64,000 nt of DNA from Candidatus Omnitrophota bacterium. GTDB lineage: Bacteria > Omnitrophota > Omnitrophia > Omnitrophales > Aquincolibacteriaceae. The translations under genes and the position numbers were made by a program. The stretch lies in the NCBI GenBank assembly GCA_043732705.1, contig JAYTHE010000026.1, forward strand, positions 12,136-76,135, written 5' to 3'. Under the pieces are notes generated by a model, which worked only from the letters and a program-made list of their open reading frames with translations, was not told the DNA's origin and made no database searches. Shown here piece by piece: positions 1,682 to 55,756 of this stretch. Every line of letters starts with the position of its first letter. Position 1 is the first letter of the stretch.

Positions 1682-2395
1682 ATGAGAAAAATTGTCTTTT
1701 CCCTGCGTTCACCCAGTCCTTTTCAATCGCTTGTGGATGAGTATTTCTCAGAAGTGCAATTCGAAAAGCTTCCGGAAAATAATTCCGCGGTTCAAAACGC
1801 CGATCTTATTTTTATCGAGACTCATTTTTGCCAAACGGCAATGATTCAAAGAATTCGCGTGGCGCGGAATTTGAACCCAAAAATGCGTGTGTTTGGCTTG
1901 GGTGAATTCGAGTCCGCACCCCAGGATATTTTTGACGCAACGTTTCAGGCTTCCTGTCATCTTTTTGAATTCTCAAAAAAAATATCCGAGAAAATTCATT
2001 TGCCCGAATCGATTCGGCTGCTTGTCGCGGATGATGATCCCGATATTCTCGCGATGATTTGTGATTATTTTGAGGGGCGGCAGGCTCCGGTTTTTGAAGT
2101 TTTGCGTGCGGCAAACGGGCGTGAAGCTATGGGGTGGGTTCAGAAAAAACGTCCTGACGCGATGATTCTCGATGTTAAAATGCCGCTCATGACAGGCAGC
2201 GAGGTTTATTGCAAGCTTCAAAAGCAGAATGAAAAAATCCCGACCATTATTTTTTTTGACGCGATTTCCGCGGGTGATTTAGACGCGATTAAGAAGACGG
2301 GTTCGCCGGTGATTGTGGAGAAGGGATATCGCGACAGCTCGATGGCATATTTGATGGCGACCATCAAAAAACTTGTATATTTCGCGGACTGCTGA
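1682..2395 (+). CDS. Response-regulator receiver-domain protein with an uncharacterised N-terminal ~120-aa domain
   Basis: C-terminal half shows CheY-like motifs: LLVADDDPDIL ... ILDVKMPLMTG ... a conserved Lys region. The N-terminal part has no recognisable motif. Confidence 0.6.
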   Translation: MRKIVFSLRSPSPFQSLVDEYFSEVQFEKLPENNSAVQNADLIFIETHFCQTAMIQRIRVARNLNPKMRVFGLGEFESAPQDIFDATFQASCHLFEFSKKISEKIHLPESIRLLVADDDPDILAMICDYFEGRQAPVFEVLRAANGREAMGWVQKKRPDAMILDVKMPLMTGSEVYCKLQKQNEKIPTIIFFDAISAGDLDAIKKTGSPVIVEKGYRDSSMAYLMATIKKLVYFADC

Positions 2396-2645
2396 AAAAG
2401 TCCATTTATTAGCGCGAAAGCAGTTTCATAAGGTGTCTGGAGTCCAGCCCGTCATCGCGAGGAGCCCCGTAGGGCGACGTGGCGATCTGACGCTTTTTGT
2501 CATTCCCGCGAAGGCGGGAATCCAGACTGGATCCCCGATCAAGTCGGGGATGACACGGCGTGTCAGATTGCTTCGCTTTGCTCGCAATGACGTGATAATT
2601 AATAAGGACTCTTTGAGCAGCCCTTACCATTTCGGGAGAATATTT

Positions 2646-4595
2646 TTGAATTGTAGAAAAGTTTTTTATCGTAGTGCATGTTTTTGTCTTCTGTCTTTGG
2701 CTGTTAGTCTTTTGTTTCCGGCTTTTTGCCGGGCGCAGAATTTTGAATTCTCCAATGATGACAGAATTTTTATGCAAAAAATCGAGCGGCGCGCGCTCGA
2801 TTACTTTTTAAAAGAAGCTAGCCTTGAAAATGGGCTTGTGCGCGATTATGCTCCTAATCAAGCGGGCGAAGCCGACACTTCCCCCGCAACGATTGCCGCT
2901 TCGGGACTTGCTTTGAGTGCGTATGCCGTTGGAGTTGAGAATGGCTGGATTTTACGCGAGGAAGGTATGAATCGCACCAAACGAGCGTTGCGTTTTGCCT
3001 TGCAAGGCGTCGAGTCTGAGCATGGATTTTTTTACCACTTCGTCAGTTTTAGCTCTGGGAAGCGCATTTCACAATCCGAACTTTCCCCGATTGATACCGC
3101 GCTTTTTATCTCAGGAGCTTTATTTGCCGCGGAATATTATCAAGATCCGGAAATTTCGGCATTGGCTAGAAAATTATATGAACGCGTCGACTTTCCTTGG
3201 ATGCAAAACGGCGGGAAATTTTTTGCGTTATTTTGGACGCCTGAAAAAAAATTCAGCGACAAGCATTGGGATCATTACGATGAATCACTTTTGCTTTACG
3301 CGCTTGCGATCGGATCGCCGACGCACCCCATTGACGCAGACTCCTGGCATGCCTTGGCGCGTCCCGTGGGAAGTTATCAGTCTTACCATATGGTCGCGAT
3401 GCCGCCGCTTTTTACGCATCAGTATCCGCAAATCTGGCTTGATTTGCGTAACAAACAAGACGGTGTGATGAATTATTTCAATCATTCGGTTACAGCTTGT
3501 GAGGTGAACCGGGCTTTCGCGATGGATGAATCGGAGACTTATAAAACGTATGGTCCGGCCGCATGGGGAATTACCGCGAGCGACGGGCCGCATGGTTATA
3601 AAGCTTACGGAGCGCCGCCGGGCTGGGCGATTCACGATGGAACGCTTGCTCCAAGCGGGGCAGGAAGTTGTATGCCTTTTACGCCAAAAGAATCGCTTGC
3701 GGTTCTCCGGCACTTTGAATCCTACGGAAAAAAATTATGGGGGCGGTATGGTTTTGCTGATGCTTTGAACGACGATGAAAATTGGGTTTCACCGCGTGTG
3801 CTTGCGATTGATCAAGGCGCCATGATGCTCATGATTGAAAATGCAGCGAGCGGACTTTTATGGAAAACGACGAATCGCATTGCCGCATTCCAAAAGGCTT
3901 TTGAAAAAATTGGTTTTAAACCCGGCTCAAAAGAGTTGGCATGGGTTGATCCGCCTCATACGCGTGCCTTCTATGCAGCGGGCGGAATACAAGTCGATGG
4001 ATTTATGAAAGATTGGCCGGGCGGGATGGATGTGATTACGCTGGACAAAAGCTTTGCGGAGTTTGGCGACTTTCGCAAAGAGCATGACGCGCGCGCTAAA
4101 ATTCGCTTTGCTTGGGATGAAACCAATTTATATTTTGCCGCAGAAGTGGAAGATGACAGTATCGTGGCGCGCCAAAGCGGAACGCAGCTTTGGCGGGATG
4201 ATTTATTAGAAATGTATATTGACCCCCAGGGCGACGGACTTTATTGGGAAGATGAGCGTGATTTTCAAATTGGGTTTCGTCCGGTTCCCGGGAGTGATGG
4301 GGCCATGGTTTGGTCTTGGTTTCAAAAGGGTGAAGATCCGGTCCAAGCCGGTTGGGTTAAATCGCAAAGTTATAGCGATGCGCGCGGCTATGTCATCGAA
4401 GGCAGTATGCGTTGGGATCAGCTCGGTATTGTTCCGCGGCCGGGGCTTGAGGTCTCTTTAAGCCCGGCTTTGCATGATGTGGATGCTGACCATTCGCATC
4501 GCAAGTTACAATGGTTTTTCAGAAGCGAAGGAAAACTAAAAAAGTTTACACTGGGGAAAGTTATTTTGGAGGGACCGCATGGCGGAAAAAAATAG
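2646..4595 (+). CDS. Secreted glycoside-hydrolase-like protein ((alpha/alpha)6 glucoamylase-like/DUF3131-type core) with C-terminal CBM9-like carbohydrate-binding domain
   Basis: The ORF table extends to 2373, but 2373-2640 is translation of the palindromic repeat (VIPAKAGIQ ... RFARNDV). A signal-peptide-like segment (SLAVSLLFPAFCRA) begins near TTG 2646, preceded by GGGAGA; an alternative start is ATG 2771. The core motifs (DYFLKEASLENGLVRDY ... IAASGLALSAYAVG) resemble glucoamylase-like/beta-1,2-glucanase-type barrels. The C-terminus (RFAWDETNLYFAAEVEDDSIV ... DDLLEMYIDPQGDG) resembles CBM family 9. Confidence 0.55.
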   Translation: MNCRKVFYRSACFCLLSLAVSLLFPAFCRAQNFEFSNDDRIFMQKIERRALDYFLKEASLENGLVRDYAPNQAGEADTSPATIAASGLALSAYAVGVENGWILREEGMNRTKRALRFALQGVESEHGFFYHFVSFSSGKRISQSELSPIDTALFISGALFAAEYYQDPEISALARKLYERVDFPWMQNGGKFFALFWTPEKKFSDKHWDHYDESLLLYALAIGSPTHPIDADSWHALARPVGSYQSYHMVAMPPLFTHQYPQIWLDLRNKQDGVMNYFNHSVTACEVNRAFAMDESETYKTYGPAAWGITASDGPHGYKAYGAPPGWAIHDGTLAPSGAGSCMPFTPKESLAVLRHFESYGKKLWGRYGFADALNDDENWVSPRVLAIDQGAMMLMIENAASGLLWKTTNRIAAFQKAFEKIGFKPGSKELAWVDPPHTRAFYAAGGIQVDGFMKDWPGGMDVITLDKSFAEFGDFRKEHDARAKIRFAWDETNLYFAAEVEDDSIVARQSGTQLWRDDLLEMYIDPQGDGLYWEDERDFQIGFRPVPGSDGAMVWSWFQKGEDPVQAGWVKSQSYSDARGYVIEGSMRWDQLGIVPRPGLEVSLSPALHDVDADHSHRKLQWFFRSEGKLKKFTLGKVILEGPHGGKK

Positions 4596-28859: not shown

Positions 28860-28928
28860 TGTCATTCCCGCGAAGGCGGGAATCCAGTTTTTAATCTGAC
28901 TAGATTCCCGCCTTCGCGGGAATGACAG
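28860..28928. repeat. Inverted pair of palindromic hairpin units (MITE/REP-like)
   Basis: TGTCATTCCCGCGAAGGCGGGAATCCAG at 28860-28887 and the reverse unit CTAGATTCCCGCCTTCGCGGGAATGACAG at 28900-28928, separated by a 12-nt spacer. Confidence 0.85.
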
Positions 28929-28949
28929 AGTAGCAATTCTCATTAAAGC

Positions 28950-29267
28950 TTGGTTTACTTGAAAGAATATTTTGTTTATATTTTAGCAAGCAAGAGAAAT
29001 GGAACTCTTTATATTGGAGTTACCAATGATCTTGTGCGTAGGGTATATGAACACAAGCAGGGGTTGGTTGAGGGTTTTACGAAAGAATATGGAGTTGACC
29101 GGCTGGTCTATTTTGAACAAACGAATTCCGTTGAAGCAGCGATTTTACGTGAGAAGCAAGTTAAGAAATGGAATCGTCAGTGGAAATTAAGATTGATAGA
29201 AAATCAAAATCCAGAATGGGAAGATTTGTACAACAAGTTGACTGGATTCCCGCCTTCGCGGGAATGA
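28950..29267 (+). CDS. GIY-YIG nuclease family protein (COG2827-type small URI-domain endonuclease)
   Basis: YFVYILASKRNGTLYIGVTNDLVRRVYEHK ... KKW matches the GIY-YIG core. Start is TTG 28950. The last codons and the stop (..TGFPPSRE*) lie inside a repeat unit. Confidence 0.8.
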   Translation: MVYLKEYFVYILASKRNGTLYIGVTNDLVRRVYEHKQGLVEGFTKEYGVDRLVYFEQTNSVEAAILREKQVKKWNRQWKLRLIENQNPEWEDLYNKLTGFPPSRE

Positions 29268-29270
29268 CAG
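29242..29270. repeat. Single reverse-orientation hairpin repeat unit overlapping the GIY-YIG stop codon
   Basis: CTGGATTCCCGCCTTCGCGGGAATGACAG. The stop TGA falls at 29265-29267 inside it. Confidence 0.85.
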
Positions 29271-29342
29271 TAAAAACAGAGGTTTAATAATCGTGGATTT
29301 AACTGTCTTTAGTCCACAGTCTTCAGTCTTTGGTCTGCTATT

Positions 29343-29911: not shown

Positions 29912-29979
29912 TGTCATTCCCGCGAAGGCGGGGATCCAGGTCTAACGATTACTAGATTCCCGCCTTCGCGGGAATGACA
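29912..29979. repeat. Inverted pair of palindromic hairpin units
   Basis: TGTCATTCCCGCGAAGGCGGGGATCCAG at 29912-29939 and CTAGATTCCCGCCTTCGCGGGAATGACA at 29952-29979. Confidence 0.85.
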
Positions 29980-29991
29980 TTAAAAAGGAAA

Positions 29992-31230
29992 TCATCTCTT
30001 TTTTAAGATGACGAGGGTTTCAATATGCTTGGTACGCGGAAACATATCAAAGGCCTGAACAGATTCCACCTTATAAGCCCGCTCGGTGAGTATCCTTAAA
30101 TCGCGCCCTAAAGCCCCCATATGACACGATATATATAGTATCGAATCAGGGCCCTTCCCTGAAGAAAGCGCCTTAGAAACGATGGGATCAAGGCCTGTGC
30201 GGGGAGGGTCAAGCAGGGCAAGAACGGGGCCATGGTGCTCTTCTTCCAAAATATCTTCGATGCAGTTTTCCACTTCTTCAGGGGCGATTTCAGCTGCAAG
30301 CCCCGCGTTATTCAAATTCATTTGCAAGGCGTCAATCGCTTGCGGATGACTTTCAACACACAAGGTTTGAGATTTGCTTGGATGCACGAGCATTGTAAAA
30401 GTACCCACGCCCGCGTAAAGATCCCAAAAATGTTCCGGTTTTAAACTTTCATACTGCGCATGAATTTTTTCTGCGATTTTTAAAGTCATTTCAAGATTAT
30501 TTTGAAAAAAGCAGCGCGAATGTGTTCGCAGGCGGATATTACCAACCGGAATATTAAAAAAAGTATCTTCAGCGCTTGTGGTAACTTTGCCTGCGGCTCC
30601 CACACGCACTGTGATTCTATTTGCTTTTGCAGTGTCATCCTCGCGCAGGCGGGGATCCATGTGCGGGTCGTTGGTCTGACGCGCAGTAGTCATCCCTGCG
30701 GAAGCAGGGATCTTCTGCCTGTTATCTCGAGTCTCTGGTCTCAGGTCTGCCAGAAATGAGTTAATCTCATTTTTAGCAAGTAGGCATGATTTGATTGCGA
30801 CTTTCGACTCATTGTTCTCATCCACAAAACCCCAGCCGTTATTTGCGTGATGTAAAGTGATGTGATTGCGATAGCTGTAAGGGTTGGAATTCGCGACAAT
30901 CGGCAGAAAAAGTTCATCGGGAAGCTGCAGCTGCTTTTGTAAAGATTCACGGATTTGAATTTCTTTCCATTTCACTTCTTCCGCGTAGCTCATGTGCTGA
31001 TACTGACAGCCGCCGCAGGAACCATAATAGGGGCAGGGAGGCGTCTCCCGCGCGTTAGAAGGATTCTCAATTTTGATGGCCCGTGCTTCTATAAAATTCT
31101 TTTTATCCTGAAGAATTTTAATTTCAACCGTTTCGCCCGGCAAAGCATTTTCAACAAAGCAAACTTTGCCTTCAAATCTGCCAATACCTTTTCCGCCGTA
31201 ACCTATTTTTTCGATTTTGATTTGTGTCAT
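29992..31230 (-). CDS. rlmD: 23S rRNA (uracil-C5)-methyltransferase RlmD/RumA family (TRAM + [4Fe-4S] + SAM-MTase), carrying an in-frame repeat insertion
   Basis: TRAM N-terminus (IGYGGKGIGRFEGKVCFVENALPGETVEIKI). Cys cluster CPYYGSCGGCQYQH. MTase motifs DLYAGVGTF and nucleophile ISCHMGALGRD. The segment IPASAGMTTARQTNDPHMDPRLREDDTAK is translation of the repeat family. Confidence 0.85.
   Translation of the reverse strand: MTQIKIEKIGYGGKGIGRFEGKVCFVENALPGETVEIKILQDKKNFIEARAIKIENPSNARETPPCPYYGSCGGCQYQHMSYAEEVKWKEIQIRESLQKQLQLPDELFLPIVANSNPYSYRNHITLHHANNGWGFVDENNESKVAIKSCLLAKNEINSFLADLRPETRDNRQKIPASAGMTTARQTNDPHMDPRLREDDTAKANRITVRVGAAGKVTTSAEDTFFNIPVGNIRLRTHSRCFFQNNLEMTLKIAEKIHAQYESLKPEHFWDLYAGVGTFTMLVHPSKSQTLCVESHPQAIDALQMNLNNAGLAAEIAPEEVENCIEDILEEEHHGPVLALLDPPRTGLDPIVSKALSSGKGPDSILYISCHMGALGRDLRILTERAYKVESVQAFDMFPRTKHIETLVILKKR
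30633..30717. repeat. Two direct hairpin repeat units inserted in-frame inside the rlmD-like CDS
   Basis: TGTCATCCTCGCGCAGGCGGGGATCCAT at 30633-30660 and TAGTCATCCCTGCGGAAGCAGGGATCTTCTG at 30687-30717. The minus-strand reading frame continues uninterrupted. Confidence 0.8.
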
Positions 31231-31256: not shown

Positions 31257-31325
31257 TGTCATCCCCGCGAAGGCGGGGATCCAGTCTTGAGTATTGCTAG
31301 ATTCCCGCCTGCGCGGGAATGACAG
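31257..31325. repeat. Inverted pair of palindromic hairpin units
   Basis: TGTCATCCCCGCGAAGGCGGGGATCCAG at 31257-31284 and CTAGATTCCCGCCTGCGCGGGAATGACAG at 31297-31325, between the two minus-strand genes. Confidence 0.85.
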
Positions 31326-33125: not shown

Positions 33126-33299
33126 ATGACGCATCCTGAAAAAATAAACACAGATAGTTGGATCGAAATCAAATTGATTGTTGAGCCGGAGGAATATCGA
33201 TTCCTTCAAAAGCAAGCTCAGCGCAAAGACATGATGGTTTCAGACCTAATTCGGCAAATTGTTCTGCGCTACATCGGTAATGAACGGGGGAGTTTATGA
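33126..33299 (+). CDS. Small (57 aa) ribbon-helix-helix-like protein, translationally coupled to the giant gene
   Basis: Absent from the ORF table (below 60 aa). Reads MTHPEKINTDSWIEIKLIVEPEEYRFLQKQAQRKDMMVSDLIRQIVLRYIGNERGSL. The beta-alpha-alpha pattern is CopG/RHH-like. Its TGA overlaps the giant gene's ATG (ATGA at 33296-33299). No strong SD. Confidence 0.4.
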   Translation: MTHPEKINTDSWIEIKLIVEPEEYRFLQKQAQRKDMMVSDLIRQIVLRYIGNERGSL

Positions 33300-36200
33300 G
33301 GTTAAAAAAAACAGTCAAGAAAGTGACCGCGCTTTTTTTGATAGTTACTTTTTCTTGGACAAATTTAATTGGAGCAAATAGCTGGGCGGCAGTCGAGCCG
33401 ATTCAAATGGTTAATGGGCAAGCCACAGCTGTTACCGATCCTTTTGCCACGAATACAAGTACTACTCAGATGGGAACGGTTCCCGTTGATTTTTTAGCGC
33501 AACAACCTGTGGTGACAACCGCTGCCGCAGTCTCCTTGGTTTCAATTGCTCCTACAGCTGCATTAAAATCTACCAACGTATCAAGTTTGTTGGGGAACCC
33601 TAAACCTTATATTCTTTCTAGTTCAACTTCCGCGACAAATCTGAGCTATGTAAACAATGCATTCAATTTTGGTTATAGTGTTCCAAATACTAACGACAAA
33701 TCAGGATTTTCTGTTTCATTTGATAATACAAGTACGGCCTTGATAGAAACGCAAAGCCTAACAAAAATGACCTTGGGTTTGAAGGGCACTGCTTCGACAA
33801 TTCAACTCGAAATCGTGGACTCATCCGGAATGCACGATAAGATTTTACTCACAGGTATTTCAAACACAGTCGAGCAGTTTTGGAAGATTCCAACGGCCTA
33901 CTTTTCTGCTTCAGTGAATAAAGCGAAAATTACTCAAATTAATTTTATTGTTGATCAATCGAATACTACAACCACAGCCCGATCGGGAACTTTGAATGTT
34001 CGGTTGAACGGATTGGATGTCGCTTCGCCAACTGCGCCTCTTGTGCAATCTGCGCCGCCCGCATTTTCAAATGTGAATAATATTACCTTGTCAGGAGCCA
34101 AAGAAGCGAACACATCACTTTTGATTAATGGTGTTGAAGTTATGCCGCGTAATAACTCAACAGCCTGGTCTTATCAGGTGAGCTTGCCCATAGAAGGTAA
34201 ATATATATTCAGTCTGATTGTCAAAAATTCGCTTGGAAAAATCAGTGCGGCATCTACGGTTGCGATAACGCGTGATACTGTTTTACCAACCGGAACAATC
34301 ATAATCGATTCAGGGGCTCTTTATTCCACTGACTTAAATGTGGCGTTGAAGCTTTCGGCGGTAGACGCCGGCAGCGCGGTCAAAAAAATGAGTTTTTCAG
34401 CGGACGGAGTGAATTGGAGTGCTCAAGAAACTTATGTGACTGCAAAAACTCTGACGCTTTCCTCAGGCGACGGTAATAAAACGGTGTATGTGAAATTTTA
34501 TGACGGAGCGGGGAATGCTAGCGCCGTATATTCCAAATCAATCATTGTTGATACTTTACCGCCTTCCGGAACAATTAAAGTGAATGATGGTGTGGCGATG
34601 ATTAATCAACGGGTAGCAATGTTGAATCTTTTAGCTGTAGACGTTGGATCCGGTGTCAGCAAAATGAGTTTTTCAACTAACGGGACTTCTTGGACAACCG
34701 CAGAAGTCTATGGGACAACTAAAGATTGGATATTTTCAGCGGGTGATGGGAATAAAATAGTTTATGTAAAGTTTTTGGATAAGTCGGGTAAATGGTCAAC
34801 GCCGATATCAGCAGCTGTTTTGATGGATACAATCAAACCGACAGGATCAATTAATATTAATTCCGGAGCGGCTTATGTTAATTTGCCTGAGATTGCGCTT
34901 AATCTTTCTGCTGCCGATCTTGGGGGAGCAGGCATCGGCAGCATGAGTTTCTCGTCTGACAATGTGAATTGGACAGTGCCGGAAGCTTACACGACTACCA
35001 AATCCTTTGTGCTTTCTCCCGGCGATGGGAATAAAACAATTTATGTAAAATATTTTGATAAAGCGGGGAATGTGAGTGTCGCTTATTCAAAATCCATTCT
35101 ATTGGATACGATAGCACCAACGGGTACGATGCGTATTAACGGAGGCGAGTCTTTTGTTAGTCAGACAGCCGTAACTCTTAATTTAACCGCAGCTGATTCC
35201 GGTACGGGGCTCGATAAGGTAAGTTTTTCGAATGATGGTGTGAATTGGAGCGTGGCCGAAACATTTGCTGCCGAGAAAAATTGGGTGCTTGCGATTGGCG
35301 AAGATCTTAAAACTGTTTTTGTTAAGTTTCTTGATAAGGCCGGTAATTGGTCAAGTGTAATTTCTAATAGCATTTTTCTGGATGTCACCGCGCCCACGGG
35401 GGCAATCAATATTAACTCCGGCACTGCTTACACAAACTCAAAAAATATCACATTAAATTTATTAGCAAATGATTCTGGCAGTGGTATCGATAAGATGAGT
35501 TTCTCAGTAGATGGAATTAATTGGAGCGCGCTTGAAAATTTTACGGCTTCCAAAGCATGGATGCTTTCTGACAATGATGGGAATAAAACGATTTATGTAA
35601 AATATTTTGATAAAGCGGGGAATGGGAGTGTCGCTTACTCAAAGTCCATTATCCTGGACACTATCGCACCGATTATTGATCTTTTGAATGCGCCGACTCA
35701 TGCAAATAGCGCAAGTTACATGACTCAGTATCGTGTGGATGGCGTATTAAAAGACAAAGCTTTTACGCTTAGCTCCGGAATGAATGCGATTTCAATTCGG
35801 GAAATAGACTTTGCGGGAAATGAAACAATTCGCACATGGAATGTGGAATATTCTACGACGGAAGACATCAATCTTGCCGGCGGTGGGTTGCAACATTTTG
35901 AAAATGGAAAGATTCAGTATCAGGTTAATGCGGACGGGAGCCGGGTTAATTATAATTCGGATGGATCGATTGCGAATTTTTCATGGGGCATAGCGAATGG
36001 AAATACAAAGGTCACATTTTTAAATGACGCACAAAACTCTTTAGAAATACGCGACGCATCCAATCAATTAATCAAGATCATCTCAAATGTAAAACCCCCA
36101 GAGCCTAATTTGAGCAACGCTCTTAAAATTAATTTGCAAGATGGAATCGAGACTTACTATTCAGAAGGTGTCTTGAAGGAAATCCGGACTGCGGAAAATG

Positions 36201-39200
36201 TGAAGCTTTTTAATTTAACGATGTCCGCGCCTGTCTCCGCAAGTGAAGTGCCCGAAATACGGGATGCCGTGATTGCTTATCCTAATGGTTCGATTGACAT
36301 TATGTGGAATAAATTTTTGATCCGCAGAATCACAGTTGATGGATCAATTACAGATATGCTGCCTGACGGAACGATAGGCAGGGAAATTAGCGAGGAAATT
36401 GAGCAAACTTATCTCGGAATTTATGATGCCTCCGGAAATGTTGCAGGGACAAAAATTCTTTCGAATCAAGGCGACGAAGTCACTTACGACGAAAAGGGAA
36501 TTTTAAAAGAAGTCAAAGGGCATGATGGTAAGCATTTTGTTTATGATCGCACACAAAGTGGGAACCAGTATCTTTTAAGCCTAAACGGAGCACTTTCCAG
36601 TTCTGCGTCGGACCAAACGCTTAAATCAGGGAAATATGCGCAAGACGGAAGCGTTCTTGAGCTTGATTTTCAAAATGGCAGCAAAGTAACCTTTGAAAAC
36701 GGACAAATTAAACAGGCTGTAAATGCACAAGGTGAGACGGTTAATTACAGTCAACTGCTAAGCAATGGCCTCGCACAGGGGCTAATGGTGAATCGGGGCT
36801 TAGCCAATTTTACTTATGACATAACCGGTTTTCTCAGCCAGATTCAAACGGAACAAGGAATCATTACCCGCGAACAAGTGGACTCTAATCACGATGGTCT
36901 GCTCAATGACCAAGATACGGTCGATTTGCTGTTGGAGCTGACAGGCGGGAATAAACTCACGGATTTTCAATTGGATGTGAATGGGAAAATTTTAAATGGG
37001 ATTATCGAGACGCGCGAAGGTATAAAGCAGAAAATTGAAAATGGAATTCTTAGAGAGCTAATTACCGCAGATGGCAAAAAATATCTGATACATAACGGAC
37101 AGGCAGAACTTGATACTTGGGCATTTCAGGATGGCATAGTTGTGAAGTATGGCGGTACAAGTATTCAGCAGATTTTGTTTCCAAATGGGAAGCGTTTTGA
37201 GCAAGTGCAGCTTAACGCACAAAAAGAAATTGCAAGCTATGTTGAAATTGATGGTAACACACAAAGTTTTTTTGAAAATGGAATTTTAAAAAAGCGTGTT
37301 TTTGATGGGGTTCAGATTTTTTACTCAATAGATGGACGAGCTCAAAAAATAATCCGTGCGAATGGTGCCGAGGAATTTGTTGAGCATCAATTTGATGTGA
37401 ATGGAAATTGGGTTGGATTAAATCTGGTTAGTGCGGATGGCATGCTTGTTTACGATGAGGATGGAAAGCTTACCGCTATTTTGACATCAGGCTTAACCGC
37501 GCAGGTCGAAGATAGCACGATTAAGAGTCTTTCAACGCGCTTTGGAAATATACAAGATCCCGTTTTTAATGCTAAGGGCAATCTGAACGGAGAGGTTGTT
37601 TTATCAGACGAACGAAAACTTCTCATTCAGGATGGCAAACTTTTACGTATAACTTTTAAAAATGGAACACAGATTGATTGTGCCAATGGTCGCATCTCAC
37701 GCGTTGAAAATTCAGAGGGAATTTATCAGCTTACCTACTTGGAAAACTCTAGTGCCCTTGAGGATGTTAAAGTTAATTATGTCTTAAGCCCCGGTACTTC
37801 TGCCACCGGACTTACGGTTGAAATGAGCCTCGCAAGCTATTTACTAGCTAATCCTTATTCTGAATTTTCAAAAATCATAAGTCCTCGCCCTGCGAAAGAT
37901 ATTTTTGCGGGTGGAATACAAACACAGTTAGGCGCTCATGGTTTACTTGATTTATCAAAGATAGTTGAAGACCAAGATCGCGGAGATACTTACTCCGTAG
38001 GAGGGATTTTTGATCCAAACTTATCAGATATTTATAATTTAGATGGCAACTATAACGGCGGATATCTTAGCAAAAGTCTCATGGGGATGATTGCTTCTGA
38101 TTTACTAGATTTAGATGGAGATGGTGATTTAGACCGGATCTTTGTTGATTCTTCGAAAAATTTTTGGTGGGTTCAAAAATTTGAAAATGGAAGTTTCCTT
38201 TCTGCTGAGAAGTGGATCGGGATAGAGGCGATTGGAAATACAGTCAATAATTTTGCTTTAAGATTCTCTAATGACTCAAACACCGCGGTTATGGGTAACT
38301 TGCTGGATATGAACGGGGATGGCAGGCCTGATCGCGTAGTAGCTTCTGTAAATGAAAATCCCGTTTGGTATGTTCAATTAAATAATGGTGTCGGTTTTGA
38401 TCCGGCTAAAATTTGGAGTAATGTGCAGCCGCTTATCCAAATCAATGCCGGCGATCCTATCAACAAGTACGCGCTACAAGTTCGCGAGAATTCTTCGCAA
38501 AATCAGTTTTTTATCTCTGATTTAATTGACATGGATGGTGACAATTTGCCGGATCGCATTATTCAATCGCAAGCAAGCCCTGTTCCTGGCGCGGATCCAT
38601 TCAATCATTGGTTTTTTCAAAAAAATAACGGACATGGGTTTGATGAAGCTGTCATTTGGAAAGGGATTAACAATTCCTTTGATCTGGATCCTAAGATCGG
38701 CAGCGGCATGAACGTTTTTTTTAATAGTACAACTTGGTTTGATGAAGATCTGCGCCTTGCATTTACAAGCGCCCATGCAAGTTTTAATAACGCTTGGACT
38801 AGCAAAAATATTAATGCTTACCGTGCGACTTTCCTTCTAACTAAGTCAATGGTTAAAGGGCCTCCGGGAATCTTGAATTGGCTTAATAGCCTGGAACCGC
38901 AGCTTTTCGGAACGACATGTGTAAAGAACATATGCACTCAATATATAAAGGAAAACGTATACCAAGCGGCCAACGCACTTTTTTCAAACATTGATTCTGT
39001 CCAAAGAAATATTCTAACCACGAGCGTTCTAAAGGACATGAATGGCGATGGCCGGCCCGATCGAATTTTACTTAAACAGAAGAATCCGAGTAATGCTAAT
39101 TCGGGCTATAGCTGGTACATCCAATGGAATAATGGCAGCGGCTTTGATCCCGCTGTTCTTTTTGATGATCAAGTTCGCAGTGTGTCGGGCAGCATTGCGC

Positions 39201-42200
39201 AGCAGGGAGCATCCACCGCCATTCAATCTTTTTTTGCCTGGGATCAGAAAGAAAAGACACGCAGCTATCTGAGTTATTTAGCGGATGTCACGGGTGACGG
39301 CCTTCCGGACCGCATCACTTTAGATTCTTGGAGCATGGTTCCGGCAAATCGGTGGTGGGTTGAAGTGAATGATGGAAAAACTTTTAAGGATGCTGTTGCT
39401 TGGGATGGTGTGGAAGGTAGTGCTTTAGCCCAAATCGCGCCTTCCCAAGGTATTGAAGGAGCCGCGACGCAGAGTTCGAATGTAAGCGTGATATCAAAAC
39501 TAATTGATATAAATGGCGACAAAATTCCCGACCATATTTTTTTTAAGGAAGGAACAAATCAATGGGTTGTGCAGTATGGAACAGGGCACGGCTTTTTACC
39601 TTCTCAGCCGATGGAAATCCAGGGTATTCGGAACAAAGAAGCATTTAATGCGGCTAAATACGAATATGCGCACATAAGTTTGCGCGCTCAATATCCTGAT
39701 CTTGTTCAAAATGGCAAATTGGTAATTAGGCTTATCGATGAAAATAATAAAGAAGTTCAAAAATGGGAAATTACGGGCGCAAACAATAGCTGGAAAGATC
39801 AATATTTGGCGATTGACCGTGCAAAAACAGGCGGCCGCTATCTGGATGCGCGTTGGGAGCTTAATGCAGGGGTAGTTGCAGCCGATCCGCAAATTTTAGT
39901 CGATGATGTAAGTTTAATTTCGTTGCATCCCAATGCAAGTACGGAATGGCTAGATTATTTGCTTACGGAAGGGAATGTGATTAATGCCGTGCAAGCGGCG
40001 GCGAATGATCCGGCGATTCATGATTTAGCTCAAGTCGTTAATGCGCAAGACACATTTGATTGGAAAAAACTGCTCGCGGTCGAAACCAAAATTAATTTCA
40101 ATGCAACCGGCGCGGTTAGCGGCGCCGAAAAATTAAATGGTGAAACCTCACAAGTTCAAACTTCGGGCAACACAACCACGATTACTGTGGCGCATACCGA
40201 TGGAACTGTTACTCAAACCACAGTTCCCACCGCAGGTAGTTCAAATAGCTACACAAAAAGCATTAACTATGACAATGGAACACCGGATAATTTAACGGAT
40301 GACTACACTGAGATAGCTATGATTGCTTATGATCGTATGCGAAGTGTGACTCGTGACCACAGTCATAAACAACCGCTTCAATATTCTTATGAATTTGATG
40401 AATTAAATCGAGAGATTACAGTTATCTATGATCCTGATTCTAATGAAACTGAAAAATCACGGGCGGTTTCCGGATTAAATGGGGACGAAAATAAAATTGT
40501 CGCGCAAATCGCGGCCAACGGGGTTGAAACTCGCTACACCTACAATGCTTCCGCTGAGCTCACGCGCACCGAAATTACTTATAAGGGGCGCGTACGCGAA
40601 ACTTTTGAGCAAAGTATTACTGCGGACGGCCTTCACGCGCTCAAAACCGAATCGGGCTCAATCGAGTTTTATAATGAGCAAGGACAAATTGTCGGCCATC
40701 GCACAACCGATGGCTATTATTACAAGCATGAATTTGCTCCGGCTAAAACCATAGAGACTTCTATAACCACTAAAACAGTTGTGTTGTGCGATTCCGCAAA
40801 GCAAGATTGTTCAGCAATTCCTGTCGCGCAACGCACGCTTACAGTTCAAATTCCGACAGTTACCTTGACAGACTGTTTAATTAATTGCGAAACCATTCAT
40901 CAGGTTACACTCGATCATCTTACCGACTTAGATGGCAATATTGCTTTTTATACAGGCTCGCAGTTAAGCAGTCTTGAATTATCAACGGGCCTTAAGATGA
41001 CTTTCGACGGAATGATTACCGAAAATAGCAAAGATGTTAATGGTAATGATATTGAAATTACCAAGCCCAAGAACGTGGTCATTTTTCATCAAGATGGAAC
41101 GATCACTGAGTTTAAGAATGGTCTGCCATACTCTGTCACTTCCGCAGCTGGCCACGTTATTTCTATTGAGCCCGACACAGAGACGACGACTACAGGTCGT
41201 GTTGTATTAAAAAATCCTTCCTCCTCCGCCGAGTTTCACTACGCTGAAGCGGTCAAGCTTTGGAATCAGAAAGTTTTGGCTAATTTTGATAAATATCAAT
41301 TGCCGGACAGCCAAGTTGTGCAGGTGGAATATGCAAAGACGGGCAACAAGATCGTTACGCAGCTTTTCGCGTCAGGTGGGCGGGAAATGTATGACGCTGC
41401 CGGGCATATTGACTTTGTGGTTTCCGAAGAAGGGGATCGCATTATTGATTATGACTATGATGCAGCCGGCAATCCTACCGCGATCCATTTAGAAGGCTCG
41501 CGCCGCAAACTTGATCAGACCATATTAGATCTTAAAATTGAAATAGCTTTAAAACAGTATCAGTCTTTACTTGATGTGGCAGAACGCGAGCAGATTTTAA
41601 ATGAAACAGTAGAAAGTCAGTACATTGTTCAACGCAATCAGTTAATCGCGTTACGCGCGCAAATTGAATCGCAGCGAAACCAACTAGCCTCGATTAAAGT
41701 TAAAGGCAAAGCCGGTAAAAATTCAATATCGGACGCGATGCAGCAAATTAATGTTGGTCTCGGGCAGGTGAATCAGGCTTTATACCAATTGCTCGAAAAT
41801 CGTACGCAAGCGCTCGCGAATTTACAAGGCCAGGTGAAAAATCTTAATACGCAGATTAATGACCAAACAACGCAGGCTTACACGGACATTTCAAATAAAG
41901 AAAGAGAAGTTCAAAATTCAATCCTGACGCAGGAAATTTCGCCGATCGTTTATCACTGGTACCGCACAATTCTTGGTCGCGATCCCTCTGAGTCGGAGTA
42001 TGAAGCTGCCAAGTCTTTGGCCAACTATAGCTCGGGGACATTTAACCTTACAAGTCTTAAGGCGCAGCTTCAAAATAGCCCTGAATATGTCCAACGCACA
42101 GCGGAAGTAGCCGCGATTAAAGCCGCAGTTAAGACGCAATTGCTTAATTATTTAGCGGCAGATGACGCCGGCAAGCAAGCCTTTGTCGCAGGTTTAGGAA

Positions 42201-45200
42201 TTAATTCTCAAAATAGAGTGTCTCTTGCTCGGGCTGAAGTGGATGCAATTTTTGTATGGATGGATAAGCAAAACTTGCACTTTGGTCAATCCGCTTTCAT
42301 TTCCTTAGAAGCGCTGCTTGACGATGCGGGCATTGCGCACAACCGCATTAATATGGCGCGGGATTTAATTTTAACTGACATTATTACCGGTACTCTTACT
42401 CCGATTGAAAAAGGTGATTTGCTTATTTCGATGTATGCGATGAATGCCTATGCCGCCCGGTTTGGTTTAAATTTATCGCCACTCAAACTAACTTACGACG
42501 CCCTCAAGTCTATTTTTGATACTTGGTGCGTTGAGCATGGTTCATGCGCGGGATTCCGTTTGGTTGCGCATATGGATGGTAATCATTACGTTGTAGTTAC
42601 AGGCATTACTACGCGGGTTGAAGATGGGAAGACTATCGAAGAAGTTCACTATACTGATCCGGGCGCGGGCAAGAACGGTGACGAAGCGGTTGTCGTATCC
42701 AAAGATGATTTTTTGAAGTATTGGATTAATCAATCCGCAAAGTTAGACAGCCCGGATGCATCTAACTTACAAAACTCAGCTATGGGTTATATCCTCTCGC
42801 CGCGCGCGCCTCCGGCTGCTAAAAAAAGTGAATTCCGTGTTTTAAATTTCACAGAGCAAATGCAGGTTCGCGGCTCCTTCTTCTTTCTCATTCCCATTAT
42901 CGTAGCTGCTATCGTTGTAGCTATTCATGCCATTGTTGGCGCAATTATCGCAGCGATCACGGCGATTATCGGCGCACTCGTAGCAAGTGTTAGCACAATC
43001 ATTACCGGTTTCACCACGTTCTTTGGTGGATTATTCGGAAATTTCTTAACAACATTCTCTGGATTTTTTACCGGAATATTTCACGGTTTGACTTCGCTCG
43101 GCGGACTTGTTTTTAATGCGATTACGTACGGTCCTAATGCGGTTCTTGGAGTGCTTGGCCTGAAAGCCGGAACCTTTCTCGGCAGCGTGGTTTTCTCAAG
43201 CTTGATAGGCGCTGAATTCTTGGGTGCAGGAAAGCTTTTAGAATTGACGGGTTTGTCCCCAAAATTCGCGCAAACGATTATTAACTTTGGAAAAATTATC
43301 ACGGGTGTCAGTCTTATCGCAACGGGCGCTGGAAGTGTTCTTGGATTCGGATTCATCAGCGCGGGAACAACGGATTTGCTCCATGCCTATACAAATCTTT
43401 CACCGCAGTTTATCAATGCTCTTTCCATTGGTGCGCAGGCATTAAGCGCGTTTGGAATTGGTGGAGTTATCGGCGGAACTATCCAAGGCGCAATGAATGC
43501 GCTTAAAGAAGCAACTCCATTTTTGACGAAAGAGCTTTCATCGCTGGGGTTGCTTAGTTTTGGGACGAGCAAAAGCCTCAGGCTCGCTGCCTTGCTTGAA
43601 ACCCCGATCAATTTATTTACGGGCGCACTTTTGGGAGGAGGGTTTTCAGCAGCTAATATTCTGAACTCCGTCAAAACGGCGCTTTTTAGTCAGCAAGCAC
43701 TTGCTAGTTTTATTTCGATCGGGGCGCAAGTGGGACTGAATGCATTACCGATTAACCCTCTTTTGGCCGGCTTAGGCGGGGTAGTTATTTCGGGGCTGAT
43801 TGATGGATTGGTTCCGGTCAAAAAAGTTCCGGGCTTGGAAATTGGCGCGCCTATTTTTGAAACAACTTATCAATTGAAAGGCGTGCTGGAAGGATTAAAA
43901 AATGCCGTTCAACGCGCCTTCAATACTGTTTTGGAGACTCTTAGAACAGAGTCAGTGCGGTTTGACGTATCAGTTGCGAAAAATGGACTTAAAGCAACTC
44001 TCTCCGACATTGTAGCAAGCGCGCTTGACCGCTCTTCAATTGAAGGTTTGATTGGAACTGTCGGTAACCTCTCGGATTATATTGAAGACAAATATAACAA
44101 TCACTCCACGATCGTTAATTATCACGGTTCGCCGGCTAAAGAAGTCACTTTGGATGTAAATGGTAAAACCGTCATTATGACATTCGATCAGGCGACACAT
44201 GAACTTTTGCGCGTTGATGGCAGCAATGGGCATATTTTAGAAGGCGATTTGCGGCTTGGGGCGAATGGAAATATATACGCTTTTAACGGTTCGGAATTAA
44301 CCTCTGGAGCCAATGGCGTCGTGCAACAGTTTACTTATGAAGACGGCAATCTTGTTTTTTCGCGCTATGTCGGTGATGGTAAAGGCGCGGATTGGTACCC
44401 TGAGCAAGGTAAGAAATTAACTCTTTATTCAGACGGACAATTGCGTGACGGCATTATTGAAGACTTGAGTTCGGGCGCAAAGACGGTTGTGCGCAACGGA
44501 AAAATTATTGAAGTTATCAATCCGCTTAAGCTTGAAATCGCACCGAATTCAATCGGCGGCGAGCAAGTTCCACTTTTTGAGCAGGCAGGGCTGCTTGGCG
44601 AAGATGGAAAATTCACAAATTATGAATATCGAATCAATTCCGCGGCGCTAAAAGGAATGCGGTCAGATGATTTAAGCAGCGCGGCGTTGACGGGCTTAAA
44701 AGAATCCATGAATGATCTTTCCAGTTGGCAGGGAACACCGGCAGGATTTGCGAAAACAGGTATTCAAAAAGTTCAAGCATGGGAGGAGAATTTTTATGCG
44801 GTGAACGGCAGTCCTCTGACAAATCGCGGTTCCTTGGGTGTTTTTCTTGCGGCAGGAGCCATTAAAGGCGTGTTCGATATTGGCAATTTTGGAACAGACA
44901 CGTACTTGGCGGTGGAATCATTAAAAGAAGCGATTCGAACCGGGGAATTCGAAACCGGCGCGAAGAATTATTTTGATAATTGGAAAAATTCGCTTCTCAC
45001 TAATCCTTTGATTTCTGTGGCTAACGTATTTGGAGTCAACACCCCCAATTTAAATCAAGCCGTGTCGTCTATGGGCAACGAAACCATGCGCGTCATGAAT
45101 GCCTTTGGCACCGCAGAAATGGTCAAGGTTTTATGGCCGTACAAAGGAATTTTCGCTACGGGGTTAGTATCTGCTCTGAAAGATGATTTTGGACAGCTCA

Positions 45201-53543: not shown

Positions 53544-53555
53544 TATTAATAGTAT

Positions 53556-53620
53556 TGTCGTCCCCGCGAAGGCGGGGACCCAGTTATTATTTCTGGATTC
53601 CCGCTTACGCGGGAATGACA
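53556..53620. repeat. Inverted pair of palindromic hairpin units between glgB and glgX
   Basis: TGTCGTCCCCGCGAAGGCGGGGACCCAG at 53556-53583 and CTGGATTCCCGCTTACGCGGGAATGACA at 53593-53620. Confidence 0.85.
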
Positions 53621-53644
53621 ACTGAGAATAACGGAGTTAGGAAG

Positions 53645-55756
53645 ATGCAAATTTGGCCCGGCAAATCTTATCCTCTGGGAGCGAATTGGGACGGTGCGGG
53701 AGTGAATTTTTCGATTTTTTCGGAGCATGCTGAAAAAATCGAGCTTTGCCTTTTTGATTCCCCGGACTCGGCTAAAGAAGATGTCATTCTGCCGTTGCCC
53801 GAACGCACCAATCATATTTGGCATGGATACATTCCTGGGTTAAGGCCCGGACAGCTCTATGGCTACCGCGTGCATGGACCCTACAAACCGCAAGAAGGAC
53901 ATCGCTTTAACCCCGCTAAAATTTTACTCGATCCTTATGCTAAAGCGATTGGCCGCCAGATTACCTGGCGCGAAGAAATGTTTGGCTATGACTTGCATAA
54001 CCGCCGTAAAGATCTCGCTATCGATAAACGTGACAATGCCGCTTGGGCGCCTTTGGGTGTTGTGGTTGCGCCTTATTTTGATTGGGAAGGCGACACGCTT
54101 TTAAAAACACCTTGGCAGGAAACAGTTATTTATGAAATGCATGTTAAGGGCATGACGCAGCTGCATCAGCATATTCCCAAAGCCTTGCGCGGAACTTATG
54201 CCGGGTTGGCCTCCGAACCGGTGATCGCACATCTGAAAGAATTAGGAATTACGGCGGTGGAGCTGATGCCGATTCATTTTCACGCGAATGAGTGGCATTT
54301 ATTGGATAAGAAGTTGACGAATTATTGGGGGTATAACACCGTTTCTTTTTTTGCGCCCGACCCGGAATATGCTAGCGCCAAAAATCCGCTCGAGGTGATT
54401 CGTGAATTCAAGCATATGGTGAAACTTTTTCACCGCGCGGGTATCGAAGTGATTTTAGATGTGGTTTATAACCATACTGCGGAAGGTAATCAGCACGGGC
54501 CGACGCTTTCATTTCGAGGCATCGATAATAAATCTTATTACCGTTTATCGGAAGAGAATCAACGGCATTATGAGGACTTTACAGGCTGCGGCAACAGTTT
54601 GAATGCGCGTCATCCGCGTGCGCTCCAGGTGATTACCGATAGTTTGAGATATTGGATTCAAGATATGCATATCGACGGTTTTCGTTTTGATTTAGCGAGC
54701 ACGCTCGCGCGTGAATTTTTTGCAGTTGATAAAATGGGAAGCTTTTTTGATGTGATGCATCAAGACCCCGTTATTCATCAAGTGAAACTCATTGCTGAGC
54801 CATGGGATCTGGGTGAAGGCGGCTACCAAGTTGGTAATTTTCCGGTAGGTTGGGCGGAATGGAATGGAAAGTACCGTGATTGCATGCGCAGTTTTTGGAA
54901 GGGAGACGGCGGACGGCTTTCAGAATTCGCGACACGGTTGTGCGGTTCCAGCGATCTTTATAAAATCAGCGGGCGCAGGCCTCAGGCGAGCATTAATTTT
55001 ATTACCAGCCATGATGGATTTTCAATGCAGGATTTAGTAACGTATAACTCGAAGCACAACGAGGCTAACCTTGAAGAAAACCGCGATGGGACGGATGATA
55101 ATTTAAGCTGGAATTGCGGTTTTGAGGGTCCGACTGAAGAATTATCCGTAGTCAAACTGCGTGAGCAGCAAAAAAGAAATTTGATCGCCACACTTTTTCT
55201 TTCACAGGGTGTGCCGATGATGCTGGGCGGCGATGAAATTTCGCGCAGTCAAATGGGCAATAATAACGCGTACTGCCAGGATAATGAGCTCAGCTGGTTT
55301 CATTGGGATTTCAATGAGAATCAAGTCGCGTTTTTAGATTTCGTTAAAAAAGTAATCCGCTTTCGCAAAAGCCAGCCGGTCCTGATTCGTAAAAATTTTT
55401 TAGAAGGCCGTGAAGTACGCGGAGCAAAAGACATAATCTGGCTTGATTCAACCGGCAAAGAAATGGGCGACGCGGAGTGGAACAATCCGCATGTTCAAAG
55501 TGTCGGCATGCTGCTTTCCGGTCAAGCCATGAACGAACTGAATGAACGCGGCGAACGGATTGAAGGCGACACTTTACTTTTAATGATGAATGCGTATCAT
55601 GACCGGGTTTCCTTTTTGCTTCCGAAGATTGATTCGTCACAAGCATGGGAAATGGCTTTTGATACAGCGGAAGGCAAATTGTCAGGATGGAGAATGCGCG
55701 GCGAAGAAACGTATGTTCTTGAAGGCCGGTCATTGGCCGTGATGAAGCTTGCCTGA
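53645..55756 (+). CDS. glgX: Glycogen debranching enzyme
   Basis: MQIWPGKSYPLGANWDGAGVNFSIFSEHAE ... HGY-PG ... GYRVHGPY ... GHRFNPAK-L-DPYA ... YWGYN ... FDLAS ... AEPWD ... NNNAYCQDN. Collinear with GlgX. The ORF-table start at 53555 is a repeat-derived artefact. Confidence 0.93.
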   Translation: MQIWPGKSYPLGANWDGAGVNFSIFSEHAEKIELCLFDSPDSAKEDVILPLPERTNHIWHGYIPGLRPGQLYGYRVHGPYKPQEGHRFNPAKILLDPYAKAIGRQITWREEMFGYDLHNRRKDLAIDKRDNAAWAPLGVVVAPYFDWEGDTLLKTPWQETVIYEMHVKGMTQLHQHIPKALRGTYAGLASEPVIAHLKELGITAVELMPIHFHANEWHLLDKKLTNYWGYNTVSFFAPDPEYASAKNPLEVIREFKHMVKLFHRAGIEVILDVVYNHTAEGNQHGPTLSFRGIDNKSYYRLSEENQRHYEDFTGCGNSLNARHPRALQVITDSLRYWIQDMHIDGFRFDLASTLAREFFAVDKMGSFFDVMHQDPVIHQVKLIAEPWDLGEGGYQVGNFPVGWAEWNGKYRDCMRSFWKGDGGRLSEFATRLCGSSDLYKISGRRPQASINFITSHDGFSMQDLVTYNSKHNEANLEENRDGTDDNLSWNCGFEGPTEELSVVKLREQQKRNLIATLFLSQGVPMMLGGDEISRSQMGNNNAYCQDNELSWFHWDFNENQVAFLDFVKKVIRFRKSQPVLIRKNFLEGREVRGAKDIIWLDSTGKEMGDAEWNNPHVQSVGMLLSGQAMNELNERGERIEGDTLLLMMNAYHDRVSFLLPKIDSSQAWEMAFDTAEGKLSGWRMRGEETYVLEGRSLAVMKLA

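Follow-up and report, generated by a model that had tools for sequence, protein, structure and literature searches.

Can a conserved RNA-modifying enzyme take a repeated DNA hairpin into its reading frame without being destroyed by it? The question is raised by a gene in a 64,000-nucleotide stretch of DNA, hereafter the window, from a Candidatus Omnitrophota bacterium (assembly GCA_043732705.1, contig JAYTHE010000026.1). The minus-strand coding sequence at 29992..31230 specifies a 412-residue RlmD/RumA-type 23S rRNA (uracil-C5)-methyltransferase, with a TRAM domain, a four-cysteine iron-sulfur (Fe-S) motif and an S-adenosylmethionine (SAM) methyltransferase core, and it contains two palindromic units that leave its reading frame unbroken. 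In the explanation that we favor, with a probability of roughly 0.8, this enzyme has taken a known hairpin repeat in-frame into one of its loops, disordered and permissive, and tolerates it there. It is directly supported by the membership of the units in a repeat family at the DNA level, by their presence in some orthologs and absence from others, by strong purifying selection on the remainder of the gene, and by the disordered loop in which they lie.

The hairpin units and their repeat family

The two units, each of 28 nt, are direct (head-to-tail) repeats in the same orientation, 55 nt from one to the next, and both have the sense of the Neisseria transformation sequence (NTS; see below) on the plus strand. 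Unit A (30633..30660; plus strand TGTCATCCTCGCGCAGGCGGGGATCCAT) is composed of the tag TGTC, the stem halves ATCCTCGC and GCGGGGAT enclosing the 4-nt loop GCAG, and the tail CCAT; seven of its eight stem positions pair, and it is predicted to fold into a hairpin both as DNA and as RNA. Unit B (30688..30715; plus strand AGTCATCCCTGCGGAAGCAGGGATCTTC) has the tag AGTC, the stem halves ATCCCTGC and GCAGGGAT around the 4-nt loop GGAA, and the tail CTTC; its stem is paired at 8/8 positions and includes one compensated change of a C:G to a T:A pair. Read on the mRNA strand, unit A encodes DPRLREDD and unit B IPASAGMT, while the spacer between them (30661..30687, minus strand) together with the end of unit B encodes TARQTNDPHM. 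An initial annotation of this DNA had described two direct units lying in-frame at 30633-30717 and adding some 28 residues, and both statements are borne out: the open reading frame (ORF) runs through the units without interruption, and the 412 residues found here compare with 379-388 in insert-free orthologs, a surplus of ~24-31. Five of the six frames of the hairpin unit are open. A role as terminators, also considered, was ruled out for both hairpins because neither is followed by a U-run in the mRNA sense.

These units belong to a family with 15 members in the window, where close to none would be expected by chance (a looser scan gives 14-15). A 25-nt consensus, with at most three mismatches allowed, has nine matches in the window versus 0.00 in 100 shuffled versions, and the published degenerate search sequence for the SRM, HGTCWYN(0-2)YYVSBRHN(0-5)WNVSBRGN(0-2)RNCYNB (Chenal et al. 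2025, PMC11893778), has 13 matches versus a mean of 0.15 in 100 Markov-simulated windows; unit A is among the 13. The typical member has a TGTC tag, an 8-bp stem opening with AT, a 4-nt loop and a CCAG or CTAG tail, and mostly occurs in inverted doublets near the 3' ends of genes. The head-to-head doublets of the window are five in number (2498-2555, 28860-28927, 29912-29979, 31257-31324 and 53557-53620).

Compared with the intergenic 25-nt consensus, unit A is identical at 23/25 positions and unit B at 20/25, the differences of the latter being compensatory within the stem. The TGTC tag of unit A is shared by all 13 other units of the window, and the AGTC of unit B keeps the GTC and differs in the first base; both units have the 8-bp stem starting with A-T and T-A pairs and the 4-nt loop. 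The tail starts with CCA, the family consensus, in unit A, with CTT in unit B, and with CCA or CTA in the intergenic units. Unit A conforms to the SRM pattern, and unit B falls outside its strict form because its one changed C:G to T:A stem pair is altered on both sides. The same stem variant ('CTGC..GCAG') is also present beside the ssn nuclease genes introduced below at three other loci (L016, L056 and L067), and in intergenic DNA 3' of the methyltransferase gene in the ortholog L004. No unit in the window conforms to the strict Neisseria NTS consensus CGTCATTCCCGCGMAVGCGGGAATCYRG, the first base being T; with that base left free, seven intergenic units conform, and units A and B do not.

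Judged by its sequence, the hairpin family matches the CGTC-tagged repetitive extragenic palindromes (REPs) of family CGTC-1 (Di Nocera et al. 2013) and also the NTS/SRM elements of Chenal et al. (2025). The former authors (Di Nocera, De Gregorio and Rocco 2013, BMC Genomics 14:522, PMC3733652) equate CGTC-1 with the dRS3 of Neisseria and the Rickettsia palindromic element (RPE) RPE-6, and RPE-4 with CGTC-4. Their CGTC-1 has a CGTC tag that stays unpaired and is often TGTC or CCTC, a stem of 8 bp whose first bases are AT, a loop of 4 nt and a tail reading CCA, and it occurs mainly as head-to-head dimers. The window units share with these elements the C/TGTC tag, the AT-starting 8-bp stem, the 4-nt loop and the arrangement in head-to-head doublets near gene 3' ends, and unit A and part of the intergenic units also have the CCA tail. 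No Rfam family was found at gathering thresholds over the whole window. The hallmarks of MITEs (miniature transposable elements with inverted repeats), namely 15-30 bp terminal inverted repeats together with target-site duplications, are absent: units A and B are direct and have no flanking duplication, and the intergenic doublets are inverted, yet no target-site duplication is seen around them.

Family members lying within two other mechanically called ORFs of the window, 2373..4595 and 53555..55756, were considered as further intragenic cases and rejected; the Pfam domains and likely starts of both ORFs lie 3' of the hairpins, so that these units are intergenic. The doublet at 53557-53620, between two α-amylase-family genes, is heterodimeric, with a left unit of variant tag and stem (TGTCGTCCCCGC..GCGGGGACCC, in which GTCGT replaces GTCAT). 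The ORF 53555..55756 opens inside this doublet, and its likely true start is the ATG at 53645. At 2440-2600, 5' of a glucoamylase-like gene, there is a nested group of four distinct hairpins of the GTCAT...ATGAC type. Its inner doublet (2498-2525/2527-2555) includes a second unit with the stem ATCCCCGA and a 5-nt loop, and its outer pair consists of longer, unrelated hairpins at ~2451-2492 and ~2563-2592. The hairpins of this group translate to VIPAKAGIQ and LLRFARNDV, motifs that are common in 'hypothetical protein' entries.

The loop, the enzyme and its orthologs

In the protein, the units lie in a hypervariable segment, residues L163-A203 (LRPETRDNRQKIPASAGMTTARQTNDPHMDPRLREDDTAKA; DNA 30622..30744, minus strand), which is made up of degenerate GAC heptamers and the two hairpins. 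The AlphaFold (AF2) model of the enzyme has a mean predicted local distance difference test (pLDDT) score of 92 and a predicted TM-score of 0.88, and pLDDT drops below 50 only at residues 172-189 and 195-201, which correspond to DNA 30628-30717, nearly the same interval as in the initial annotation. This low-confidence coil is placed between a helix (residues 154-162) and a strand (205-210), inside the central domain and after the fourth Fe-S cysteine, C149. The initial annotation, which had put the insert between the Fe-S/TRAM part and the methyltransferase core, was roughly right; more precisely, the site is within the central domain, past C149 and the helix 154-162. The only internal insertions of eight or more residues among 119 aligned relatives fall at query residue 162/163, and they are confined to the closest clade. 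The equivalent inter-domain segment of RlmCD is ~60 residues longer, indicating that this part of the fold and family tolerates changes in length. In the predicted structure, the insert site belongs to a loop at the surface of the central domain that is disordered and varies naturally in length, the pLDDT values below 50 all falling within residues 172-201.

Outside this loop, the enzyme has the features of an intact RlmD-type protein. Pfam recovers the TRAM and tRNA_U5-meth_tr domains, and the NCBIfam model TIGR00479 (rumA, the RlmD equivalog) matches in two stretches with 238.9 bits against a cut-off of 183.55. The top Foldseek matches are RlmCD (5zq0) and RumA (2bh2), with TM scores of 0.79-0.84. 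Across the 119 sequences, the Fe-S cysteines C66, C72, C75 and C149, the nucleophile C369, and E404 are invariant; in the SAM motif DLYAGVGTF, D270 and G274 are invariant and the remainder nearly so, and in the DPPR motif, P343 and R344 are invariant and D341 and P342 nearly so. When the window gene is compared with five orthologs, the proportion of differing sites is 0.10-0.18 for nonsynonymous positions (pN) and 0.69-0.74 for synonymous ones (pS, which are saturated), and the ratio of nonsynonymous to synonymous divergence (dN/dS) is 0.04-0.09. The gene is under strong purifying selection and is not decaying.

The comparison with orthologous DNA, covering nine loci that represent eight orthologs (L001, L003, L004, L005, L006, L007/L008, L089 and L090), shows that close relatives carry either one unit or none. 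Only unit B is present in L004 (protein P0002), with a 25-nt core identical at 25/25 positions to that of the window. Three others have only an A-type unit: that of L005 (P0004) has the same stem mismatch as unit A of the window, that of L006 (P0010) matches the consensus perfectly (25/25) and sits at the same loop, and that of L003 (P0011) has a compensated stem. No hairpin is present in the genes of L089, L090, L001 and L007/L008; among the named proteins, P0003, P0005 and P0012 have none. Every hairpin-bearing gene, that of the window as well as those of L003-L006, is in-frame, and of the frames on that strand only the two without the unit's TGA are used. The spacer between units A and B is itself composite in the linker DNA comparison: its 5' part (CTGCGCGTCAGAC) is common to L004, and the rest is like the GAC-rich leader that precedes the A-type unit in L005.

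A tree built without the linker has the hairpin states scattered over it, such that every hairpin-bearing lineage has a hairpin-free sister. One clade unites the window gene (B and A) with L005 (A), L004 (B) and L089 (none), and the pair L001 (none) and L003 (A) are sisters of almost the same sequence. The latter two are mostly 93-100% identical in 60-nt windows, but only 20-77% identical in a patch of ~180 nt around the hairpin (alignment columns ~391-570), which takes in the hairpin and, on its upstream side, also ~100 nt of conserved coding sequence. Part of the turnover, at least, is therefore replacement of alleles by recombination and not simple insertion.

The hairpins are not the only repetitive material in this linker. 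In the closest clade, arrays of degenerate heptamers, (GACNNNN)n, specify the whole of it and yield peptides of the R-P-x-T-x-D type, and Tandem Repeats Finder recovers periods of 7 and 14 in L004; the inserted material thus exceeds the two hairpins. Within the linker, the hairpin lies directly 3' of the heptamer array, and the same composite of array and hairpin is also present just past the stop codon in L004, L005 and L006. Arrays of (GACNNNN)n or its complement (GTCNNNN)n are located at 29305-29330 of the window, at 1536-1567, 1682-1705 and 2355-2378 of L004, at 1256-1290 of L005 and at 1345-1366 of L006. Besides the methyltransferase linker, they encode some C-terminal tails (..KTND, ..RLTTTD, ..KTTD), and in L089 and L090 inverted pairs of arrays lie in the 3' intergenic region between the convergent methyltransferase and rfbC genes. 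The array may be a target for insertion of the hairpin or its fellow traveler. No mention of such arrays was found in the available portions of PMC3733652 or PMC11893778. A further idea, that the hairpin stays in register with the 7-nt period of the GAC array before it, was dropped: it is true for unit B of the window and, by eye, not for L005.

Other short segments stand out in two of these orthologs. L005 (P0004) has a second in-frame insert of 30 nt at the end of the TRAM domain (190-227), encoding SAKGGSASGG and consisting of two small tandem hairpins, TCCGCCAAAGGCGGA and TCCGCCTCTGGCGGA; no other ortholog has it. In L004 (P0002), the linker also holds, at 1560-1600, the segment CTTTCGACCACGCTCAGGACAAGCC, which encodes PFDHAQDKP and looks like a piece of another GC-rich repeat family.

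Origin of the insert and the competing explanations

Under the explanation that we favor, hairpin units and GAC-rich heptamer sequence have become part of the RlmD-type coding sequence. Only variants that are in-frame and free of stops persist under purifying selection, with the result that the frame is intact and the loop has gained ~30 hydrophilic residues (IPASAGMT..DPRLREDD). The units could have arrived by whatever process spreads the family in intergenic DNA, a process that is possibly dependent on the nuclease Ssn and possibly aimed at heptamer arrays, and/or they could have been moved between alleles by homologous recombination. The insert-bearing protein is probably made and active, as its sequence conservation suggests, and the insert itself would be a passenger with no function for the enzyme. 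The earlier proposal that the protein tolerates a linker insertion stemming from a mobile hairpin element gains support in this way from the family copies at the DNA level, from the orthologs with no unit or only one, and from the insert being the sole low-confidence segment of the model.

The possible involvement of Ssn comes from an Ssn-like, single-domain GIY-YIG nuclease gene (28950..29267, plus strand; 105 residues, TTG start; Pfam GIY-YIG E = 9.7e-17) located 0.7 kb from the methyltransferase coding sequence. It has hairpin units on both flanks, forming an NTS-ssn-NTS cassette at 28860-29269: a doublet (28860..28927) lies directly 5' of the gene, and a unit on the minus strand (29242..29269) overlaps its stop and provides the TGA. 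According to Chenal et al. (2025, Nat Commun 16:2388, PMC11893778), the small single-domain GIY-YIG protein SsnA binds and cuts NTS hairpins as single-stranded DNA (ssDNA), its gene is typically flanked by NTS hairpins, and the family corresponds to cd10448. In sequence, the cassette of the window matches this published family. At least 582 Ssn-like relatives are found in species genomes of many phyla, and those at 54-76% identity come from very many phyla, most of them being flanked by covarying hairpins. Among 80 ssn loci kept for the count, a hairpin is present at the stop in 54/80, upstream in 65/80 and at both places in 47/80, set against a far-flank background of 0.04 per 180 nt. The association of GIY-YIG genes with hairpins is already published (Chenal et al. 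2025) and is not new here.

Several observations count against this explanation. No target-site duplication or clean empty site can be defined, even against the closest hairpin-free alleles (L089 and L090), because the linker on either side consists of heptamer repeats that defy precise alignment. The two units inside the gene are arranged head-to-tail, which Di Nocera et al. (PMC3733652) call negligible for CGTC-1. Further, between the genes of the window and L004, whose synonymous sites are saturated, no exact match is longer than the 25-nt core of unit B, and in the six intragenic units 46/48 stem positions pair, with three compensated pairs. For a neutral passenger, the hairpins look too well preserved. 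Selection at the DNA or RNA level is one possible cause, insertion that was recent or independent is another, and gene conversion by other copies is a third; with only ~3 independent lineages, selection on the hairpin is inseparable from recent or independent insertion or conversion from master copies.

The best of the competing explanations, though we consider it unlikely, is that the intragenic hairpins are kept by selection as nucleic acid, either as ssDNA sites bound or cut by Ssn, whose effect on recombination or transformation at this locus would turn the loop into a programmed hot spot of variation, or as mRNA structures acting in translation or stability. It would account for the identity of unit B at 25/25 positions across lineages and for stems that remain paired through compensatory changes. 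Units A and B both keep the GTC before the palindrome and the C after it, the positions reported as most important for cleavage and binding by SsnA (PMC11893778). Further points in its favor are the mosaic tract of replaced sequence that surrounds the hairpin in L001/L003, the scatter of hairpin states on the tree, and the link of dRS3/NTS-adjacent genes to raised diversity that the same source describes. Yet recent insertion or conversion from well-kept master copies predicts the same pattern, the units number only six in those few lineages, and many close orthologs manage without a hairpin. Moreover, the stems of A and B differ from those of the cognate units at the window ssn, and the same paper reports that the N. 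meningitidis SsnA loses activity once the palindrome sequence is altered; the lack of a U-run removes a terminator function from the possible RNA-level roles.

A slightly less probable variant of this idea combines it with the heptamers: the loop would be a self-renewing hypervariable cassette within a housekeeping gene, in which (GACNNNN)n arrays attract or co-travel with Ssn-type hairpins that are kept as working sites for single-strand nuclease action or recombination. If it were true, the locus would offer a direct in-genome readout of how Ssn and NTS spread and shape coding sequence.

The initial annotation had also raised the possibility of a gene inactivated by the insertion, or otherwise a pseudogene, that merely appears intact. 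RNA binding might in principle suffer from ~30 residues added to the Fe-S central domain, but we regard this explanation as highly improbable: dN/dS relative to the orthologs is 0.04-0.09, the Fe-S cysteines, the SAM and DPPR motifs, C369 and E404 are all conserved, the score exceeds the RlmD equivalog cut-off, the model has high confidence everywhere but in the insert, and the alleles with hairpins at this loop, from the window and four independent assemblies, are without exception in-frame. Finally, an ordinary lineage-specific linker with a chance likeness to intergenic repeats, or an assembly artefact at a repeat, has next to no probability in spite of the clade-wide variability of this linker and the commonness of hydrophilic low-complexity linkers, since it is refuted by identity at the DNA level (23/25 to consensus for unit A and 25/25 at the same place in L006, with zero chance matches expected; 25/25 nt between the window and L004 where synonymous sites elsewhere are saturated, and thus not the protein-level sharing of an ordinary linker) and the same structure recurs in independent assemblies from different samples.

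Precedents and the surrounding region

The favored explanation, absorption of a known repeat by a tolerant loop, has clear precedents. In-frame intragenic REPs of the CGTC and GTAG types, mostly dimers encoding 20-30 residues, are described from several phyla by Di Nocera et al. (PMC3733652), with hosts that include tRNA pseudouridine synthases, tRNA synthetases and helicases; the earlier remark that such palindromic insertions are rare outside Rickettsia was therefore overstated. The present case resembles these in having single or paired units wholly within ORFs, in-frame and of 20-30 residues, with RNA-modifying enzymes among the hosts. It differs in the host lineage (Omnitrophota) and in the gene (rlmD), neither of which is listed in that paper, as well as in the head-to-tail pair, the setting of GAC heptamers and the use of one loop in several orthologs.

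The comparison with Rickettsia itself proves apter than it could have seemed from the sequence, RPE-6 being placed in CGTC-1 in PMC3733652. RPEs (Ogata et al. 2000, cited in PMC3733652 and PMC10969869) are likewise palindromic repeats lying in-frame in functional genes, in surface regions predicted to be compatible with the fold, and the equation of RPE-6 with CGTC-1 by Di Nocera et al. is their sole link to the units of the window. In contrast, RPE-1 is ~100-150 bp long with a conserved peptide and belongs to an obligate intracellular alphaproteobacterium, whereas the units here are of 25-28 nt and come from another type of organism. A review of MITEs (PMC10969869) covers intragenic cases of RPEs, ERIC and others likewise.

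As regards the NTS/SRM-Ssn system, seven intergenic units of the window equal CGTCATTCCCGCGMAVGCGGGAATCYRG save for the first base, the NTS-ssn-NTS arrangement is present at 28860-29269, and unit A fits the SRM; unit B lies outside the SRM pattern through its compensated stem pair, and the Ssn of the window is a putative one. A search of Chenal et al. (2025) found nothing on intragenic, intergenic or in-frame units, and a literature search on the encoded peptides (IPAFAGMT, DPRLRGDD and others) gave nothing useful. The REP/REPIN-RAYT systems and BIMEs (Bertels & Rainey 2011; Nunvar 2010) are comparable in their short hairpins, inverted doublets and one dedicated, repeat-flanked nuclease or transposase gene; here, however, a GIY-YIG nuclease stands in place of the HUH Y1 transposase, (C/T)GTC replaces GTAG as the tag, and mobilization by Ssn is only putative. 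The enterobacterial RU/ERIC MITEs (Delihas 2007, PMC2759123) also are small intergenic repeats that sometimes lie in ORFs and add peptide, but they measure 100-170 bp, have terminal inverted repeats and represent an unrelated sequence family.

With in-frame REPs and the Ssn link both already documented, the locus is a further example and not a new phenomenon; specific to it are the Omnitrophota host, rlmD, the head-to-tail pair, the recurrence of units at a single loop in several orthologs, and the surrounding heptamer arrays. Knowledge of RlmD and of REP biology is unchanged by it. What it provides is a clear, well-controlled case, in a poorly studied phylum, of a REP-type hairpin from an Ssn-tied repeat family being absorbed by a conserved enzyme without destroying it. 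The ortholog series with none, one, the other or both units, together with the recombination patch, could serve the study of how repeats enter and leave coding DNA and of any role of Ssn therein.

Members of the family also lie between genes in the surrounding region. One head-to-head doublet (31257..31324) occupies the gap between a FadL-like gene and the methyltransferase start, and another (29912..29979) lies between the convergent stop codons of the methyltransferase and rfbC; the latter is absent in L007/L008, where both genes overlap. Both of these loci lack the ssn gene and every hairpin in an otherwise syntenic region (FadL-like gene, methyltransferase, rfbC and response regulator). 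In L001/L003, the gap between rfbC and the response regulator, the slot held by ssn in the window, is filled by a 23S_rRNA_IVP-type gene. Farther along the plus strand of the window, a single ORF of 4150 residues extends over 33296-45748, and relatives carry giant proteins of the Big_13/Laminin_G_3 type beside the FadL-like gene.

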